Below the pieces are notes generated by a model. That model did no database searches. It saw nothing but the letters and a program-made list of their open reading frames with translations, and was not told where the DNA came from. From contig CM000434.1 in NCBI GenBank assembly GCA_000165345.1, forward strand, positions 320,001 to 384,000: 64,000 nt of DNA, written 5' to 3'. Of the stretch, positions 13,918 through 39,524 are shown in pieces. Position 1 is the stretch's first letter. The number at the start of each line of letters is the position of its first letter. The translations under genes and the position numbers were made by a program.

Positions 13918-16900
13918 ATGGAGGAATTAAAGCATCTCAGAATACTCAATAAGGTTCAAGCAAGGATATTTGAAGAATGGAATACTAATGATAGAGATCT
14001 TGCTGAATATTTATGCTATATTGGCAAAGAAAGTAAATCACTCAAAGAGTTTAATGGGAAAGTAACAAGTATTAGTGGTGATAAAATATCTCACGAAGTT
14101 TTGGGCGATATTTATTCAATAATAAATGATACTGAATCTAAATTGAATAAAGTAAATAGTGATTCTTTAAAGCTTCAAAAATCGGACTCGAATAACGACA
14201 ATTTAAATTTTGCCATTCCAAATGAGAAAGCACCATTAAGCAAACATGCTCTGGAACTTATTAGGAAGGAGGATCCTCACTATGTAGATATTAACAGAAA
14301 AAACAAGGGCCAAAGCGAGACAATTTCCACAGGATTTGGAATGAAGGATACCAATTTAAAAAAAGGATTCGGTGCAATTTCAGGAATTAAACTGGTAGAT
14401 AGTTGCAATGTAAAATCCCAATACTCAGGTAATAAGCAAGAAAGGGTATCTAATGACTACGAAAAGTGGGAAATTATGCAGCTTCTTAATTCAGGAGTTA
14501 TTTCAAGGGATGAAATTCCTTATGACATTTGCGATACAACCGGAGATACTATCGATTTTCAAAATGTAGAAATATCCACTGAGATTGAGCTTAGAAATTA
14601 TGAGCCATTGTTTCTCAGAGGGCAATCAATTAAAAAGTTCAATTTTGACTCTTCAATACAAGTCGTAGTAAATCCAGAAGGGAGTTTGAATAAGGCAGCT
14701 GAGTTGGCATCTAACATTGCAAGAGAACGAAGAGAGATTCGAGATTTTCAGGAAAAGACCTTAATAGATAGTATTCCAAGAGATATGAACCGGCCTTGGG
14801 AAGACCCCAATCCAGAGGCTGGGGAGAGAACGATTGCAAGCGCGCTGCGAGGAATTGGGATGAATTCTCAAACCACACCGGAATGGAAACGCCAGTATTT
14901 AGGAAAGAGTCTGAGCTTTGGCAAAAAGAATGTTACTGCCTCTATATCAGAACAAAGAAAAAATTTACCCATTTATCCAATGAGAGACTCACTAGTCGAT
15001 GCAATAAGAAATAACCAGGTAATAGTTGTTATAGGAGAAACAGGTAGTGGTAAAACTACTCAGATTACCCAATATCTATATGAAGAAGGATTTTGCAAAG
15101 ATGGTGGAATAATTGGTTGCACTCAACCAAGAAGAGTTGCTGCAACTTCAATAGCTAGACGCGTTGCGCAGGAAATGGGATGTACATTGGGCTCTACTGT
15201 TGGATTTGCAATTCGATTTGAAGATATCACAACACCAGAGACAAAAATTAAATATATGACAGATGGAATGCTTCTTAGAGAAGCTTTATCGGATAACTGT
15301 TTATCACAATACAGCGTTATTATGCTTGATGAGGCTCATGAGAGAACAATCACAACAGACGTGTTGTTTGGACTGTTAAAGGTAAGTTAATAATTTATTT
15401 GCATTTAATAGTTACAAGATTCGCTGTTTCAATTTTACTGCTTTTTTTAATATTAAATACTAGCTTGATGATTGAGTTATCATTCAATTGTTGATGCATT
15501 GAAACACATACTGAATTTAGGTTTATCCAATCATTGACTGATGACTAATAGTTATTGAGAATATACTATTGGACAGATACCAATGATACAACGCTTGACT
15601 ATTAAATGCTGATATTTTCATGTATATTAACTATCTTTAGGAAACGTGCATTAAACGCCCCAAGTTCAGGTTAATTGTAACATCGGCTACTCTTGAAGCA
15701 GATAAATTTTCCGCGTATTTTATGAATTGTAATATTTTTACTATTCCTGGAAGAACTTTTCCAGTTGAAATATTGTACTCAAAAGAGCCTGTGGACGATT
15801 ATGTTGAGGCTACATTGGTTACTGTACTTCAGATTCATTTGCGCGAGCCTCCTGGAGATATTCTGGTGTTTCTAACTGGTCAAGAGGAGATCGATAATGC
15901 TTGCCAAACTCTACATGAAAGGATGAAAAGGCTGGAAAATATGAAGCCTCCGCCATTGATTATATTACCTGTTTACTCATCCCAGCCTAGCGAAATTCAA
16001 TCTCTAATTTTTGAAGATGCTCCTCCTGGATGTAGGAAATGCGTGATTGCAACAAACATTGCGGAGGCGTCCCTTACCATTGATGGGATTTTTTTTGTAG
16101 TTGACCCAGGGTTTTCAAAAATGATGGTTTTTAATTCAAAAACAGGAATGGACAGTCTCACAGTCACTCCAATTTCCCAAGCTAGCGCAAAACAGAGATC
16201 TGGTAGAGCTGGAAGAACTGGACCAGGAAAATGCTATCGGTTATACACTGAAGCTGCTTTCAATACAGAAATGCTTCCAACAACAGTTCCTGAGATACAA
16301 CGTACTAATCTTGCCAATACAGTATTACTTCTAAAGGCACTAGGGGTGAACGATTTACTTAATTTTGACTTTATGGATCCACCTCCCACTACGACACTTT
16401 TAATTGCTTTAGAAACTTTGTTTGAGCTTGGGGCACTTGATGAAGAAGGCTTTTTAACTAGATTAGGTAGAAAAATGGCAGAGCTACCTATGGAACCAAA
16501 GCTGAGTAAAATGGTTCTTTCTTCTGTTGATTTGGGTTGCTCCGACGAAATAATAACAATTACTTCTATGCTTTCTGTACAGAATGTTTTTTATAGGCCC
16601 AAGGATAAACAAGCTCAGGCAGACAGAAAGAAGTCAAAATTTTACCATCCGCAAGGGGATCATTTGACATATTTAAATGTGTATAACTCCTGGAAAAAGC
16701 AAAGATACTCAGTTCCTTGGTGTTATGAAAATTTTCTACAATCGCGAGCACTTAAAGGAGCGCAAGACGTTCGTAAGCAGTTAATTAATATATTTGACAA
16801 GTATAAGCTAGATATCATCTCAGCAGAAAATGATCACGACAAAATAAGGAAGGCAATTTGCGCTGGGTTTTTTAGTAACTCTTGTAAAAAAGATTCTCAA

Positions 16901-17194
16901 GAAGGTTACAGAAATTTGGTTGACAATCAACATGTTTACTTGCATCCATCTAGCACACTATTTAACAAATCTCCTGAATGGATACTCTACCACGAGCTTG
17001 TATTTACTTCAAAAGAATACATTAGAGACTGCTGCACTATTAAGCCTCATTGGCTTGTTGATTTTGCTCCTAATCTATTTCAATTTGCAGACCAGGATCA
17101 GCTGTCAAAAAGGAAAAAAAAGGAAAAGATTCAACCACTATATAACAAATATGAAGATCCAAACTCTTGGAGGTTATCAAAAAGAAGAAGATAA
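13918..17194 (+). CDS. DEAH-box pre-mRNA splicing ATP-dependent RNA helicase (Prp16/DHX38- or Prp2/DHX16-like). Exons 13918..15381 and 15641..17194.
   Basis: It carries [17 protein letters not shown], the LIVTSAT-type block and FMDPP, together with helicase-associated and OB-fold regions. The two ORFs are joined by a GTAAGT...TCTTTAG intron. The junction LLK|[17 protein letters not shown] matches the DHX spacing exactly. Confidence 0.85.
15382..15640 (+). other. Intron of the DEAH-box helicase gene (259 nt).
   Basis: Canonical donor and acceptor. Frame and conserved-motif spacing are restored across the junction. Confidence 0.75.
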
Positions 17195-34958: not shown

Positions 34959-35546
34959 ATGTCTGAAGCCGAATTGAACCCATATATTGAATTTAACAAA
35001 TACAAGGTATTGATTGTAATCTTTTCTGCTCTTTTAGCCTCAATTGCTGCTGAGCTTTTGTCTTATTTTCTATTTTTTAGAAAAAACGACTTCATAAAAA
35101 TGCAGGACAATTTAATTAAGTCACGAGCAAAGCTAGACAAATTAAAACTAAAGGATAAGACAGGGATAATCACAGAAAATACAACTTTATCTTCAAGTTA
35201 TTCAAATAAAATTAAGAAAAATCCTAAAATTGAATCTCTAGAGCAAAGCATTACGAACCTAACTTATAAAATTTCAATGATTAAGATGAAGTCAGGCATA
35301 TTAGTAGGTATTTTGTTTGCTGCACTAATCCCTTTGAAAAATACATTTTTCGGAGATCTACCAATATGTAAACTTCCATTTGAGCCAATTAAAATTTTCA
35401 GATTAGTTACTCAAGCTGGGCTAAAGAATGCATCAGTCGATGACGCAGGAAGCATTTTCATTTTTGGGCAGGCATTCATGGCTTTTAGAATGGCTATTCA
35501 GAAGGCAGTTTATTTTGATACCTCATCGTCATTCGGGAGGATGTAA
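34959..35546 (+). CDS. TMCO1: TMCO1-family (DUF106) ER membrane protein, a calcium-load-activated channel homologue.
   Basis: Same size and topology, with a coiled-coil between two TM segments. CKLPFEPIKIFRL...DDAGSIFIFGQAFMAFRMAIQKAV matches TMCO1 AKLPFTPLSYIQGL...DCSFIFLYILCTMSIRQNIQKIL. Confidence 0.6.
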   Translation: MSEAELNPYIEFNKYKVLIVIFSALLASIAAELLSYFLFFRKNDFIKMQDNLIKSRAKLDKLKLKDKTGIITENTTLSSSYSNKIKKNPKIESLEQSITNLTYKISMIKMKSGILVGILFAALIPLKNTFFGDLPICKLPFEPIKIFRLVTQAGLKNASVDDAGSIFIFGQAFMAFRMAIQKAVYFDTSSSFGRM

Positions 35547-35681: not shown

Positions 35682-36557
35682 TTAATTCATGTATCCTGAG
35701 GAAGGCTGCTGCGAATAGCTTCCGTAGTTTTCATCAACATTATAATATTGATTTGTACGGGTGAACTTTTCAACTTGTGTCTCAACATCATTTGTTAATT
35801 CAGTCTCACCAAATGCAGGAGAGAATTCATTTATCGATGGTTCAAAGAGAAGAGCCCATAATAATGCAGTAGAAAAAGATGTTAAGGCAAATAGAGTCGC
35901 TCCAGTGCATTTAAAAGTGGTTGCATGCAACAATAAAGAAGCACCAGATGCTGAAAATGCAAGGAAGTTGATATAGCCATATGAGTTTCCTACGCCCTCA
36001 TCTTGGAATAGCTCTAACAGCAAAAATCCAAGACCGTACGACACAAATGCAATACCACACAATATTTGTCCGAAAGTTAAGAAATTAATCTCAACACCTC
36101 CTTGGGCAACTGCCATGTTGAATGCGGACTCTAAATCAGTGCTACCACCAAGTTGCATTGTAAATACAAAACCGATAGTCTTTCCAATGAAGTCTAAGAG
36201 AGTCGCAATTTTTATTATCTTTGATCCGGTCACATATCCTCTTGCAAAACATGTGTCATCTGCAAGCAATAGCTGGAATGACATTAAATGAAGAGAACCC
36301 ATAATTCCCAAGAAGAAGCAAAATGAAATATATTTCGGAGCATTTCCTTGGACCAAAATTTCTCCTAGTGAGTGGTAATTGAAGCTGAGCTGGTTTGTAT
36401 AGTTGTAACTTATCATTGTAAGCCCAAGATAACACATTAGCTCGAATAGCAATCCCATACGGAGCAGAGTATTAAACATGCCTTCAATTGGAATGCTTGG
36501 ACCTTGCTTAGTTGCTATTCCTGTATCTACATTCTCAACTCGTGTTGATAGCCACAT
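35682..36557 (-). CDS. Multi-pass membrane protein of unrecognised family (about 6 TM, Gly-rich helices).
   Basis: Long ORF with repeated hydrophobic helices. The tracker start 36563 is TTG; the first ATG is 36557. Confidence 0.45.
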   Translation of the reverse strand: MWLSTRVENVDTGIATKQGPSIPIEGMFNTLLRMGLLFELMCYLGLTMISYNYTNQLSFNYHSLGEILVQGNAPKYISFCFFLGIMGSLHLMSFQLLLADDTCFARGYVTGSKIIKIATLLDFIGKTIGFVFTMQLGGSTDLESAFNMAVAQGGVEINFLTFGQILCGIAFVSYGLGFLLLELFQDEGVGNSYGYINFLAFSASGASLLLHATTFKCTGATLFALTSFSTALLWALLFEPSINEFSPAFGETELTNDVETQVEKFTRTNQYYNVDENYGSYSQQPSSGYMN

Positions 36558-37439
36558 TATCAAAAAATTGAAATAACTCTAATTCTTAGATTAATTTTCA
36601 AAAATTAAAACAGCGTTGAAGAAACTCTAAATCTTTAATATTTCTTAAATAAGAACAATTAAATAATTATTTTGCTTGTAATTAATAATTTCTTATAGTA
36701 TTTTTATCCATATGAAAATAATCTGTTTATGCTCACATGTAGTATTCTTTATCCTTTACACGACACGACACAAAATATACGTATTTTTATATGTTTATTT
36801 TTTTTTTTACGTGGGGAGTGCTAGCATTGTACGGCAAAGCACCTGTCTATTGTCAACACTAACAATGGAAAAGCTGCAATTTGAATATTAAAAAAATAGT
36901 GAAATATTAAGCCAATATTCGATACTGACAAATATGCTATAGGTTTAGGAAACCATATCTGAGTTATAATAACAAGTAAAAGCATGTATTCAAATAATGG
37001 TTAGTTCAATTATAGGCTACTACTATAATGGATAGCAACAATAACAATTATTGTTTCAAAAGTGAATTTGTGTATTTCAATATTATTTTTATTAATTTTG
37101 TATTAATATTAATGAATAATCCTTTAAATCTATTTATTTTTACAATCATATAATGGCATGGCGGCAATGACTGGCGGTATGTATGCACACGCAAATATTA
37201 TTCACACTCTAAACGCGATTTTGTGTATCGAAAATGCATCTTGCACCTTGCAATGGGCAAAGTTTCATCAAGCAAAATAAATAGTTATTTCAAACATGAG
37301 TGCAAATTGTTTTATTGAGTGCATAGTTAATAATTTTAGTTTTTAGCTTTAGATTTTTATTATTTATACTTAACAATAGAAAATGCATTAGCTACTCTGC
37401 CACAAGCTGACAAATTTAATTAAGATTATTTAATCGAAA

Positions 37440-39524
37440 ATGTACGGCTCTATAAGGAGAATGCTAACTCTGGAAGATCCGAAAAATGGAGAGTTTAGTG
37501 AAGATGAATTGAAAAGAATTAGATTAAAGCACATTTTTTTAATATTTATTTTTACAGTACTTTATGTATCTTGTTTTTTAATGGAACATAGTTATAATAA
37601 AAGCGCACCAATATCTAATCAGATAAGATCAAAGCTATTTGCGTCAACATCTGAGCAGCTAAATAGAATTCAAGATCAATTTGGAACTCCTGAATTGGAA
37701 TCCATTATATCAGGATCTACAGTTTCAGATGTATTAAATTTACTTCAAGCATCCTGTAAATCTAAGTCTTTAATTGAGGATGGGATGACCGAATTTTTCA
37801 ATTGCGATATAATCAGAATTGATTGGAATAAAACTCATCCAAATCCTACTCATCCTGAGTTACCTTGTGATTATTCTTCTCTTGAAAAATATGTTGAAGT
37901 TGGAGATAATACACCATTAGGCGAATTCCCACCTGCAATCAGAAAATATTATGAAACTAATAAAGTGCCATTAGATCAACAGTCAAAGCCAATTTTTCAC
38001 ATGTATCATGATTCAAAGCTATTACTTCCACTATTCTCTGATTCTGCAGATCACAATTTAGGTCCGATACCTTCAATTCATGAAAAGTTAAATTTAATAG
38101 GTAAGAAACTTTATAAAGAAGAATTAGAGAACGATTCTGATATTAAAAATTCCGATATCTTTAATAGTAAAAAAGTTGTGCAATCCAGCGAAATAAATGA
38201 GAGATATAAGCGAACTAATGTAATTGGAAAAGTTATTAGCGAACTAGATTCGAAACCAAACAATAACAAATTAGTAATTGATATGAACCATCATTGGGAT
38301 TTACTACTTAAATGCGACCCCGAATGGGTTACAGTTGTTTTTGAGGTATCTGCAGTTCAAAGAGAAAAGTATCCACTTTGGTGGAAAACAAAACTTCACT
38401 TTACTCGCAGCTCTCCATATTTAAATCATTATATTCCAGAAATAGAAATTACAACGGGTTTGGCATATCAAAGGCACTATCCTATTTCAACATTATTACC
38501 TGTTGTAACGTTATTATTATTTTCGTGGCTTTTATTTCCTGGTGCAATATCGAGTGTGCTTATGTTTCCTTACAATGTATATAGATTAATTTCAAAGAGT
38601 GGTAGATTCAGAGATATTATTGGCCACTTTATAGATCCATTTGGAAATCGAATTAATACTTTAAGTTGGTTTCAAATATTGTTGGAAAATACAATAGGAA
38701 TACTAATTACTTTAGGATTCTTATTTTCTAGTCTAGCCATTCATTTTGGCTCTGAACTTTGTATTGAAACTGCCTATAAGAAATGTGTTGATCCACATTT
38801 ATTTTGGTCTGAAACTCTTCATTTAACTGGTGCAGAGTATTATGGACAAGTACTTTTCAGTTTGTGGATAAAGACTAAACTACATGCTATTGCAGTTTTG
38901 TTATTATTTATAAGGTTACTAGAAATTTCGTTATTCTCCAGCAATACAAGCTTTCTACTCATGACATTTATCTTTGCGTTCGTACCTTTCATGTATTTTA
39001 CCGCAATATTCCTTGTTTTATTATTTGCATTCTCAATAATAATGCATGCTATGTACGGAGCTATTTATATTCAATTTTCGACAATTTCAATATCATTTTA
39101 TTCATTGTTCTTATTTGCGTTTGGAAGCCCATTCTCCGAGACAGAAGTCGGGATAAATGCTTATTTTGAAAAGAGCGCATATGGTGCAGCAGCTATGTTG
39201 TTACTATTTGAGATCCTCTTTGTCACAATTCTGTTAAATATGTTCACTACAATTATTATGAATTCTTATGCAATAGCAACTAAGAACACAGAGTGCCCAA
39301 TGAGGATGAAGAAGGTTACAGCATCACTTTGGTATCAAGCAAAACTAATTTTTGGATTTGACGATGAACTGCAGGAAGAGTTAGATACAATTGAGCGATT
39401 AGGGACGCTGATAAAAGAAAGTGAAGATGCAGTAGTACTAGATATGGCACTTCATTTGCCACCTGTTATATCACCAACAAACAATTCTTTAGACACAAAA
39501 ACTCCACTTCTAAAAGCAGGTTGA
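37440..39524 (+). CDS. Polycystin-2 (PKD2/TRPP)-like cation channel.
   Basis: Topology is S1, a ~290-aa loop, then S2-S6. The pore and S6 region FSTISISFYSLFLFAFGSPFSE...LLLFEILFVTILLNMFTTIIMNSY aligns with PKD2 [23 protein letters not shown]...FFILLNMFLAIINDTY. Confidence 0.5.
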   Translation: MYGSIRRMLTLEDPKNGEFSEDELKRIRLKHIFLIFIFTVLYVSCFLMEHSYNKSAPISNQIRSKLFASTSEQLNRIQDQFGTPELESIISGSTVSDVLNLLQASCKSKSLIEDGMTEFFNCDIIRIDWNKTHPNPTHPELPCDYSSLEKYVEVGDNTPLGEFPPAIRKYYETNKVPLDQQSKPIFHMYHDSKLLLPLFSDSADHNLGPIPSIHEKLNLIGKKLYKEELENDSDIKNSDIFNSKKVVQSSEINERYKRTNVIGKVISELDSKPNNNKLVIDMNHHWDLLLKCDPEWVTVVFEVSAVQREKYPLWWKTKLHFTRSSPYLNHYIPEIEITTGLAYQRHYPISTLLPVVTLLLFSWLLFPGAISSVLMFPYNVYRLISKSGRFRDIIGHFIDPFGNRINTLSWFQILLENTIGILITLGFLFSSLAIHFGSELCIETAYKKCVDPHLFWSETLHLTGAEYYGQVLFSLWIKTKLHAIAVLLLFIRLLEISLFSSNTSFLLMTFIFAFVPFMYFTAIFLVLLFAFSIIMHAMYGAIYIQFSTISISFYSLFLFAFGSPFSETEVGINAYFEKSAYGAAAMLLLFEILFVTILLNMFTTIIMNSYAIATKNTECPMRMKKVTASLWYQAKLIFGFDDELQEELDTIERLGTLIKESEDAVVLDMALHLPPVISPTNNSLDTKTPLLKAG

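Follow-up and report, generated by a model that had tools for sequence, protein, structure and literature searches.

In apicomplexan parasites, Ca2+ signalling underlies microneme secretion, gliding and invasion, yet few of the channels that admit or release this Ca2+ have been identified. Among apicomplexans, a single TRPP-like channel has been studied to date, TgTRPPL-2 of Toxoplasma, which has been shown experimentally to conduct cations and contributes to Ca2+ influx (PMC8216714). Cryptosporidium has no recognisable homologues of IP3R/RyR, TPC or CaV and carries only two TRP-like genes (PMC3194816). In the survey of Prole and Taylor (2011; PMC3194816), C. muris XP_002140701 was listed as a 'TrpC/TrpP' homologue and C. 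parvum XP_627518 occupied the same slot as 'TrpC/TrpP/TrpV', next to a second, larger TrpP homologue in each species. Here, we analyzed a TRP/polycystin-like gene at 37440..39524 (+) in a 64,000-nucleotide stretch of the C. parvum genome (GenBank assembly GCA_000165345.1, contig CM000434.1, positions 320,001 to 384,000 of the forward strand; hereafter, the window), for which an initial annotation had proposed a polycystin-2 (TRPP)-like cation channel. This gene is presumably XP_627518, since XP_002140701 is its C. muris orthologue. Given how few channel homologues Cryptosporidium possesses, it is one of very few candidate cation/Ca2+ channels in the parasite, a candidacy on record since 2011 which the findings on the related TgTRPPL-2 support (PMC8216714). 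On the basis of the current results, its product is very probably a subunit of a tetrameric polycystin/mucolipin-type (group II TRP) cation channel with a capping ectodomain.

The gene is one unbroken open reading frame (ORF) of 694 codons, and an exact-sequence look-up showed that its translation and EAK89823.1 of C. parvum Iowa II (CPATCC_002672) are identical throughout. A 676-residue entry from the chromosome 6 project (CAD98696.1) falls within the 90%-identity cluster of the 694-residue protein. Orthologues with 64-99% identity and long invariant blocks were present in C. hominis, C. meleagridis, C. tyzzeri, C. canis, C. felis, C. bovis, C. muris (P0006, 64% identical), C. andersoni and C. 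serpentis. The identity to EAK89823.1 and these conserved orthologues therefore establish a genuine gene under constraint. Its identification as a TRP/polycystin protein is already known from the 2011 survey and from the UniProt name 'Polycystin cation channel PKD1/PKD2 domain-containing protein', and literature searches by accession and on gregarine polycystins returned nothing past Prole and Taylor (2011).

Kyte-Doolittle hydropathy and an AlphaFold2 model concurred on the helix layout, and both bear out the topology read earlier from the sequence (S1, a loop of ∼290 residues and five further helices), including the long S1-S2 loop on which that reading hinged. The model was built from a 78-sequence alignment and was confident (mean predicted local distance difference test score (pLDDT) 82.9, predicted template modelling score 0.80); this alignment took the place of the seven Cryptosporidium orthologues alone, which gave a pLDDT of 35 and no usable model. 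The features of the gene are as follows (aa, amino acids).

37440..39524 (+): complete intronless coding sequence of a TRP/polycystin-like channel subunit, 694 aa plus stop (ORF list, exact-sequence look-up, orthologues)
37500..37589 (+): S1 transmembrane helix, aa ∼21-50 (hydropathy peak 27-52; AlphaFold2 helix 21-50, pLDDT >90)
37590..38480 (+): S1-S2 ectodomain, aa 51-347 (∼297 aa), hydrophilic, alpha/beta fold
38481..38747 (+): S2 (aa 348-385), cytosolic S2-S3 linker and S3 (aa 410-436) (hydropathy, AlphaFold2, conservation)
38829..38933 (+): S4, aa 464-498 (AlphaFold2, PKD2 alignment, conservation)
38949..39056 (+): S4-S5 linker and S5, aa 504-539 (AlphaFold2, conservation; aligned to PKD2 S4-S5/S5)
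39075..39146 (+): pore helix and selectivity-filter region, aa 546-569 (PKD2 alignments, conservation)
39171..39287 (+): S6 pore-lining helix, aa 578-616 (AlphaFold2, PKD2 alignments, conservation)
39297..39452 (+): post-S6 cytosolic helices, aa 620-638, 641-658 and 662-671 (AlphaFold2, conservation, HMMER alignment to TRPC3)

The cytosolic N-terminus ahead of S1 comprises ∼20 residues without ankyrin repeats. The S2-S3 linker contains an invariant IDPxGxR motif (398-404), S3 has an invariant E416, S5 terminates at the near-invariant G540 and the pore helix proper spans residues 549-560 in the model. The protein thus shows the fold of a group II TRP channel, namely a TRPP/TRPML-type subunit of six transmembrane helices in which a re-entrant pore helix separates S5 from S6, and its domain of ∼297 residues between S1 and S2 exceeds the 200 residues that characterize this group. 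Comparison with experimental structures, as had been proposed for PKD2, agreed with this assignment: when the model was searched with Foldseek against the Protein Data Bank (PDB), the top 50 matches were all PKD2, TRPML1 or TRPML3 (best E = 4.9e-8), and TRPC was absent from them.

A second line of evidence came from the relatives of the protein. An exhaustive HMMER search with the profile of the Cryptosporidium orthologues against 1.84 billion representative proteins identified 88 relatives at E ≤ 1e-3, including 47 at E ≤ 1e-10, whereas a word-indexed homologue search returned Cryptosporidium proteins only and, with alignment A3, just two distant extra matches. The closest relatives were from gregarines (Lankesteria, Polyplicarium, Porospora, Ancora and Selenidium), followed by a second tier from dinoflagellates (Gymnodinium, Biecheleria and Ansanella) and from marine metagenomes and transcriptomes; Toxoplasma and Plasmodium sequences were absent from the 20 relative clusters whose sources were looked up. 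When 48 relatives were scanned one by one against Pfam, 42 matched PKD_channel (best E = 2.7e-46), 26 Ion_trans, eight EF-hand and four Polycystin_dom, and none matched Ankyrin or TRP_2. PKD_channel outscored Ion_trans in each individually listed relative matching both. Relatives possessing the Cryptosporidium type of loop also lay above the PKD_channel threshold (P0021, 29.6; P0029, 31.5; P0030, 46.8; P0035, 37.6; and P0037, 37.5 bits). A profile of the 78-sequence family matched polycystin-2 (9e-33), PKD2L1 (1.5e-30) and TRPC3 (1e-15) in the PDB; as it includes canonical polycystins, these values show the connectedness of the family and not that PKD2 is the closest kin of the Cryptosporidium branch. 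Only S4-S6 were deemed reliable in the alignment of this profile to PKD2, in which Cryptosporidium S3 was paired with PKD2 S2, and PKD2 S3 appeared as an insertion. Membership in PKD_channel is therefore reached by a transitive chain of profiles, and the TRPP-like identity suggested at first is supported by the matches of the relatives, the family profile and the Foldseek result taken together.

Two further features of the family were observed. At least three paralogues (P0024, P0025 and P0041) were found in Porospora cf. gigantea, whereas each Cryptosporidium species appeared once, which suggests that the family grew in gregarines or shrank in Cryptosporidium. In addition, four distant relatives of 1221-1461 residues (P0090, P0093, P0107 and P0108, the last from an EukProt transcriptome) contained two PKD_channel/Ion_trans stretches apiece and are therefore predicted to be tandem two-repeat polycystin-like channels.

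The pore helix and S6 resemble those of human PKD2. Local alignment of this segment gave a BLOSUM62 score of 92, compared with 40 ± 6.5 for shuffled sequences (z = 8.0), and none of the 300 shuffles scored as well. The initial annotation had reported a position-by-position match through the strings 'FST..F..F....G...F.E' and 'LLF.F.ILLNMF..II...Y'; the resemblance and the shared FST and ILLNMF..II...Y elements held up, but neither literal string occurs in the Cryptosporidium protein or in human PKD2. In the corrected correspondence, F546-S-T equals F626-S-T of PKD2 where the pore helix begins, F557 equals F637, G562 equals G642, and I597-Y610 of S6 equals I671-Y684. The filter then reads F561-G562-S563-P-F-S-E567-T-E569, where E567 is equivalent to PKD2 E648 and an acidic residue at 569 is kept across Cryptosporidium. 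S6 carries the invariant motif L599-N600-M601-x-T603-T604-I605 plus Y610, in which N600 represents the TRP-typical S6 asparagine (PKD2 N674), and across the clade this S6 motif was invariant together with the pore helix and G562. T603 and M607 occupy the sites of L677 and N681 in the lower gate of PKD2, two residues that could be recognized by comparing the gain-of-function construct 9l0m (FAAIIAD) with the wild type (FLAIIND). S4 contains the clade-invariant R492 (PKD2 K572) and E495 (PKD2 K575); having a single basic residue, it would be at most a weak voltage sensor.

With regard to the C-terminus, polycystins of the TRPP type combine an EF-hand with a coiled coil. An EF-hand was not detected in the protein by the Pfam scan; the predicted helices at 641-671 could form a coiled coil. 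The amphipathic post-S6 helix at 620-638 bears a clade-invariant tryptophan, W631 (39327..39332 region), and HMMER aligned this helix to the TRP-box region of TRPC3 (EWKFARSKLW), so it is possibly a TRP-helix-like or assembly element. Group II TRP channels are generally said to have no TRP helix. We expect the protein to form a cation channel, although its sequence does not tell whether it would pass Ca2+, respond to voltage or be regulated by Ca2+.

The S1-S2 ectodomain is the most distinctive part of the protein. In the AlphaFold2 model, it contains strands at 120-129, 296-305, 314-325 and 330-339, that is, one strand plus a three-strand meander (296-339) leading directly into S2. Such a combination is the general layout of the PKD2 TOP domain and the TRPML1 luminal domain. 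Outside its TOP domain, a resolved subunit of PKD2 comprises no more than ∼250-260 residues, so ∼100 TOP-domain residues must superpose on the Cryptosporidium S1-S2 domain. Four cysteines (106, 122, 143 and 292) and the motifs GPxPxxxxKLNxIG and NHHWDLLxxCxP are conserved, whereas two inserts (189-211 and 240-274) are variable and of low confidence. A Pfam match to POTRA (E = 0.0067, 17.5 bits versus a 21.3-bit cut-off, residues 216-281) was considered to be due to chance, as it falls on a variable low-confidence insert and occurred in one of the 48 family members; a DUF1687 match below threshold (E = 0.063) was likewise dismissed. Profile hidden Markov models of the N- and C-terminal halves of the ectodomain matched gregarine and dinoflagellate-type relatives (for example, P0029, P0032, P0040, P0043, P0056 and P0075) and gave no match in the five Polycystin_dom-bearing proteins. 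As judged from these profiles, the ectodomain is a sequence family of its own, common only to alveolate relatives, and may represent either a strongly diverged TOP domain or a substitute for one. The protein belongs to a divergent alveolate subgroup composed of Cryptosporidium, gregarines and dinoflagellate-type sequences.

Based on these data, a mechanism may be proposed. Four subunits would surround a central pore built by S5, the pore helix and S6, with S1-S4 as a peripheral voltage-sensor-like domain. The ∼297-residue, disulfide-containing S1-S2 domain would be exposed to the outside or to the lumen of an organelle and, by analogy with the polycystin TOP domain or the mucolipin luminal domain, might cap the pore and aid assembly and gating. 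The post-S6 cytosolic helices could be linked to the gate or to tetramerisation.

Several observations weigh against such an assignment to the polycystin/mucolipin type. First, the direct Pfam match to PKD_channel (PF08016; E = 0.0074) scored 16.2 bits and did not reach the gathering score of 22.4 bits, so that the profile check proposed with the initial annotation is significant through the relatives and falls short for the protein itself; the match spans residues 476-611, that is, profile positions 94-223 of 225, and the C. muris orthologue scored 17.6 bits. An NCBIfam scan of the protein gave no match. These weak direct profile results agree with the ambiguous 'TrpC/TrpP/TrpV' label of 2011. 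Second, Polycystin_dom (PF20519) did not match the protein at E ≤ 10, a phmmer search of the loop alone against the PDB matched nothing, and hhalign of the loop against the TOP segments of five Polycystin_dom-bearing relatives gave a probability below 1%, which is a weak negative in view of the small reference alignment. Moreover, the presence of canonical polycystins within the alignment used by AlphaFold2 could have biased the loop toward a TOP-like fold. Third, the acidic residue of the L-G-D filter of TRPP channels (D643 in PKD2, D523 in PKD2L1) is replaced by S563, a position that holds serine in six members of the clade and alanine, glycine, asparagine or tyrosine in one each. Positions 565 and 570, usually aspartate or glutamate in the wider family, are phenylalanine and valine here. 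Fourth, the pore/S6 segment scored higher against TRPC3 (122, z = 10.2) than against PKD2, and thus its resemblance is to TRP pores generally and not unique to PKD2. With a profile of Cryptosporidium and gregarine sequences, PKD2 (0.014) came after both TRPC3 (5.5e-4) and the pore of a bacterial NaV channel (1e-3) in the PDB; for the single protein, phmmer gave TRPC3 as the best match (E = 0.002) with TRPC6 among the best, and the profile of Cryptosporidium orthologues alone found nothing at E ≤ 1. Finally, the literature searched contains no functional data and no experiment on this channel protein.

Where the channel resides and what it conducts are separate matters from its family. It is quite conceivable, at somewhat below an even chance, that it serves in an internal membrane (endoplasmic reticulum (ER) or an acidic/secretory compartment), either as a release channel or as a monovalent-cation channel, and not as a Ca2+ entry pathway of the plasma membrane. 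The nearest characterized analogues (PKD2, TRPML1 and TgTRPPL-1/-2) are intracellular, largely or in part: PKD2 and TgTRPPL-2 are mostly ER-resident and TgTRPPL-1 is found in the ER (PMC8216714). The aspartate that supports Ca2+ binding in the PKD2 filter is the one replaced by Ser563, and the lack of a detectable EF-hand points the same way. On the other hand, the sequence carries no determinant of location, the conserved acidic residue 569 and E567 leave divalent permeation possible, and the plasma membrane is a further location of TgTRPPL-2, which supports Ca2+ influx (PMC8216714). The role as a Ca2+ entry pathway, which the initial annotation had raised, is conjecture, because the filter aspartate of PKD2 is absent.

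A broader interpretation, which we regard as unlikely, is that these proteins constitute a distinct, undescribed myzozoan subfamily of group II TRP channels, whose ectodomain is a lineage-specific sensor module and not a canonical TOP domain. If true, the ectodomain could couple a gut cue, as for excystation or invasion, to cation/Ca2+ entry in Cryptosporidium, and the small six-helix form may have been lost in coccidia and haemosporidia.

Polycystin-1-type proteins were for a long time regarded as non-conducting. By this precedent, the protein might be a non-conducting receptor-like or auxiliary subunit in need of a partner, such as the second, larger Cryptosporidium TRP homologue. That homologue does exist (XP_627866, with 13 predicted transmembrane domains; PMC3194816), the filter is divergent, and in one database entry the C. 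felis orthologue bears the name 'polycystic kidney disease protein 1-like 2'. However, the full six-helix layout is that of PKD2 and not the 11-helix layout of PKD1, and the clade-invariant pore helix, G562 and S6 motif suggest a functional pore, which makes such a subunit rather improbable.

Least probable of all, if only by a small margin, is a TRPC-like (group I) or unclassifiable early-branching TRP whose PKD_channel similarity is that of a generic TRP pore: the direct PDB matches and the pairwise score described above, the likeness of the filter FG-SP-FSE to FGLSE of TRPC3, the alignment of the W631 helix with the TRP box and the 'TrpC/TrpP/TrpV' label of Prole and Taylor (PMC3194816) speak for it, but only ∼20 residues precede S1 and leave no ankyrin repeats, the post-S6 sequence (MKKVTASLWYQAK) lacks an EWKFAR box, TRPC proteins have no S1-S2 ectodomain of this group II kind, and the domain content of the 48 relatives (no Ankyrin or TRP_2) and the Foldseek ranking both point away from TRPC. 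A polycystin/mucolipin-type channel subunit is thus the explanation that we retain.

The genomic surroundings were also inspected. The window is AT-rich (∼30% G+C) and dense with long unbroken ORFs. The genes flanking the channel gene are housekeeping genes unrelated to it (a SET-domain protein, an EMC3/TMCO1-like protein, a DUF3273 protein, a radical-SAM methylthiotransferase, Rad4/XPC and SLBP), and the window contains no tRNA and no Rfam match; thus, the context offers no clue to the channel gene. At 34959..35546 (+), ∼1.9 kb upstream, lies the gene for the 195-residue EMC3/TMCO1-like membrane protein (PF01956, E = 1.7e-16). Animal TMCO1 has been described as an ER Ca2+-leak channel; the proximity of the two genes is probably coincidental. 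The gene at 35682..36563 (-), divergent from the channel gene, encodes a multi-pass membrane protein that matches DUF3273 over the full length (E = 1.2e-75). The intergenic spacer between them (36564..37439, 876 bp) gave the impression of being long for a compact genome and contains 'atggcggcaatgactggcgg' at ∼37157-37178, which in our view recalls the E2F-like promoter motifs with GGCG that have been reported from Cryptosporidium. Elsewhere in the window, two consecutive 490-residue ORFs at 13918..15390 and 15722..17194 (+) represent the halves of one DEAH-box helicase, the N-terminal half with DEAD/AAA_22 and the C-terminal half with Helicase_C, HA2 and OB_NTP_bind domains. The ∼330 bp between them probably correspond to an intron, or else to a frame break, within a single gene.

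Compared with what was known, our analysis adds a confident model, a defined alveolate subgroup with an ectodomain of its own, a divergent filter lacking the polycystin aspartate, and an ambiguity in subfamily that arises when sequence alone is considered. Among the known systems, TRPC3 and TRPC6 share with the Cryptosporidium protein the top direct pairwise and clade-profile similarity over S4-S6, an FG..SE-like filter and a tryptophan-containing post-S6 helix, but differ by the large S1-S2 domain of the latter and by their ankyrin repeats and EWKFAR TRP box. TgTRPPL-2 (TgGT1_310560) and TgTRPPL-1 are likewise apicomplexan, have a PKD-channel-type pore and were found in the same 2011 survey, but these Toxoplasma proteins are far larger, with 14 and 19 predicted transmembrane domains versus 6-8 (PMC3194816); their Cryptosporidium counterpart may instead be XP_627866. 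In comparison with PKD2 and PKD2L1, the ectodomain is ∼70 residues longer and has no Polycystin_dom sequence match, and the protein remains below the Pfam threshold; relative to PKD2, D643 is changed to serine, L677/N681 to T603/M607 and K575 to E495, and an EF-hand was not detected at the C-terminus. What it has in common with PKD2 and PKD2L1 is a six-helix architecture with a large S1-S2 extracellular domain, the FST of the pore helix, the filter glycine, the ILLNMF..II...Y of S6 and a basic residue in S4 (R492, PKD2 K572), and it resembles the mucolipins TRPML1-3, also group II TRP channels, of which TRPML1 and TRPML3 stand among its closest structural matches.

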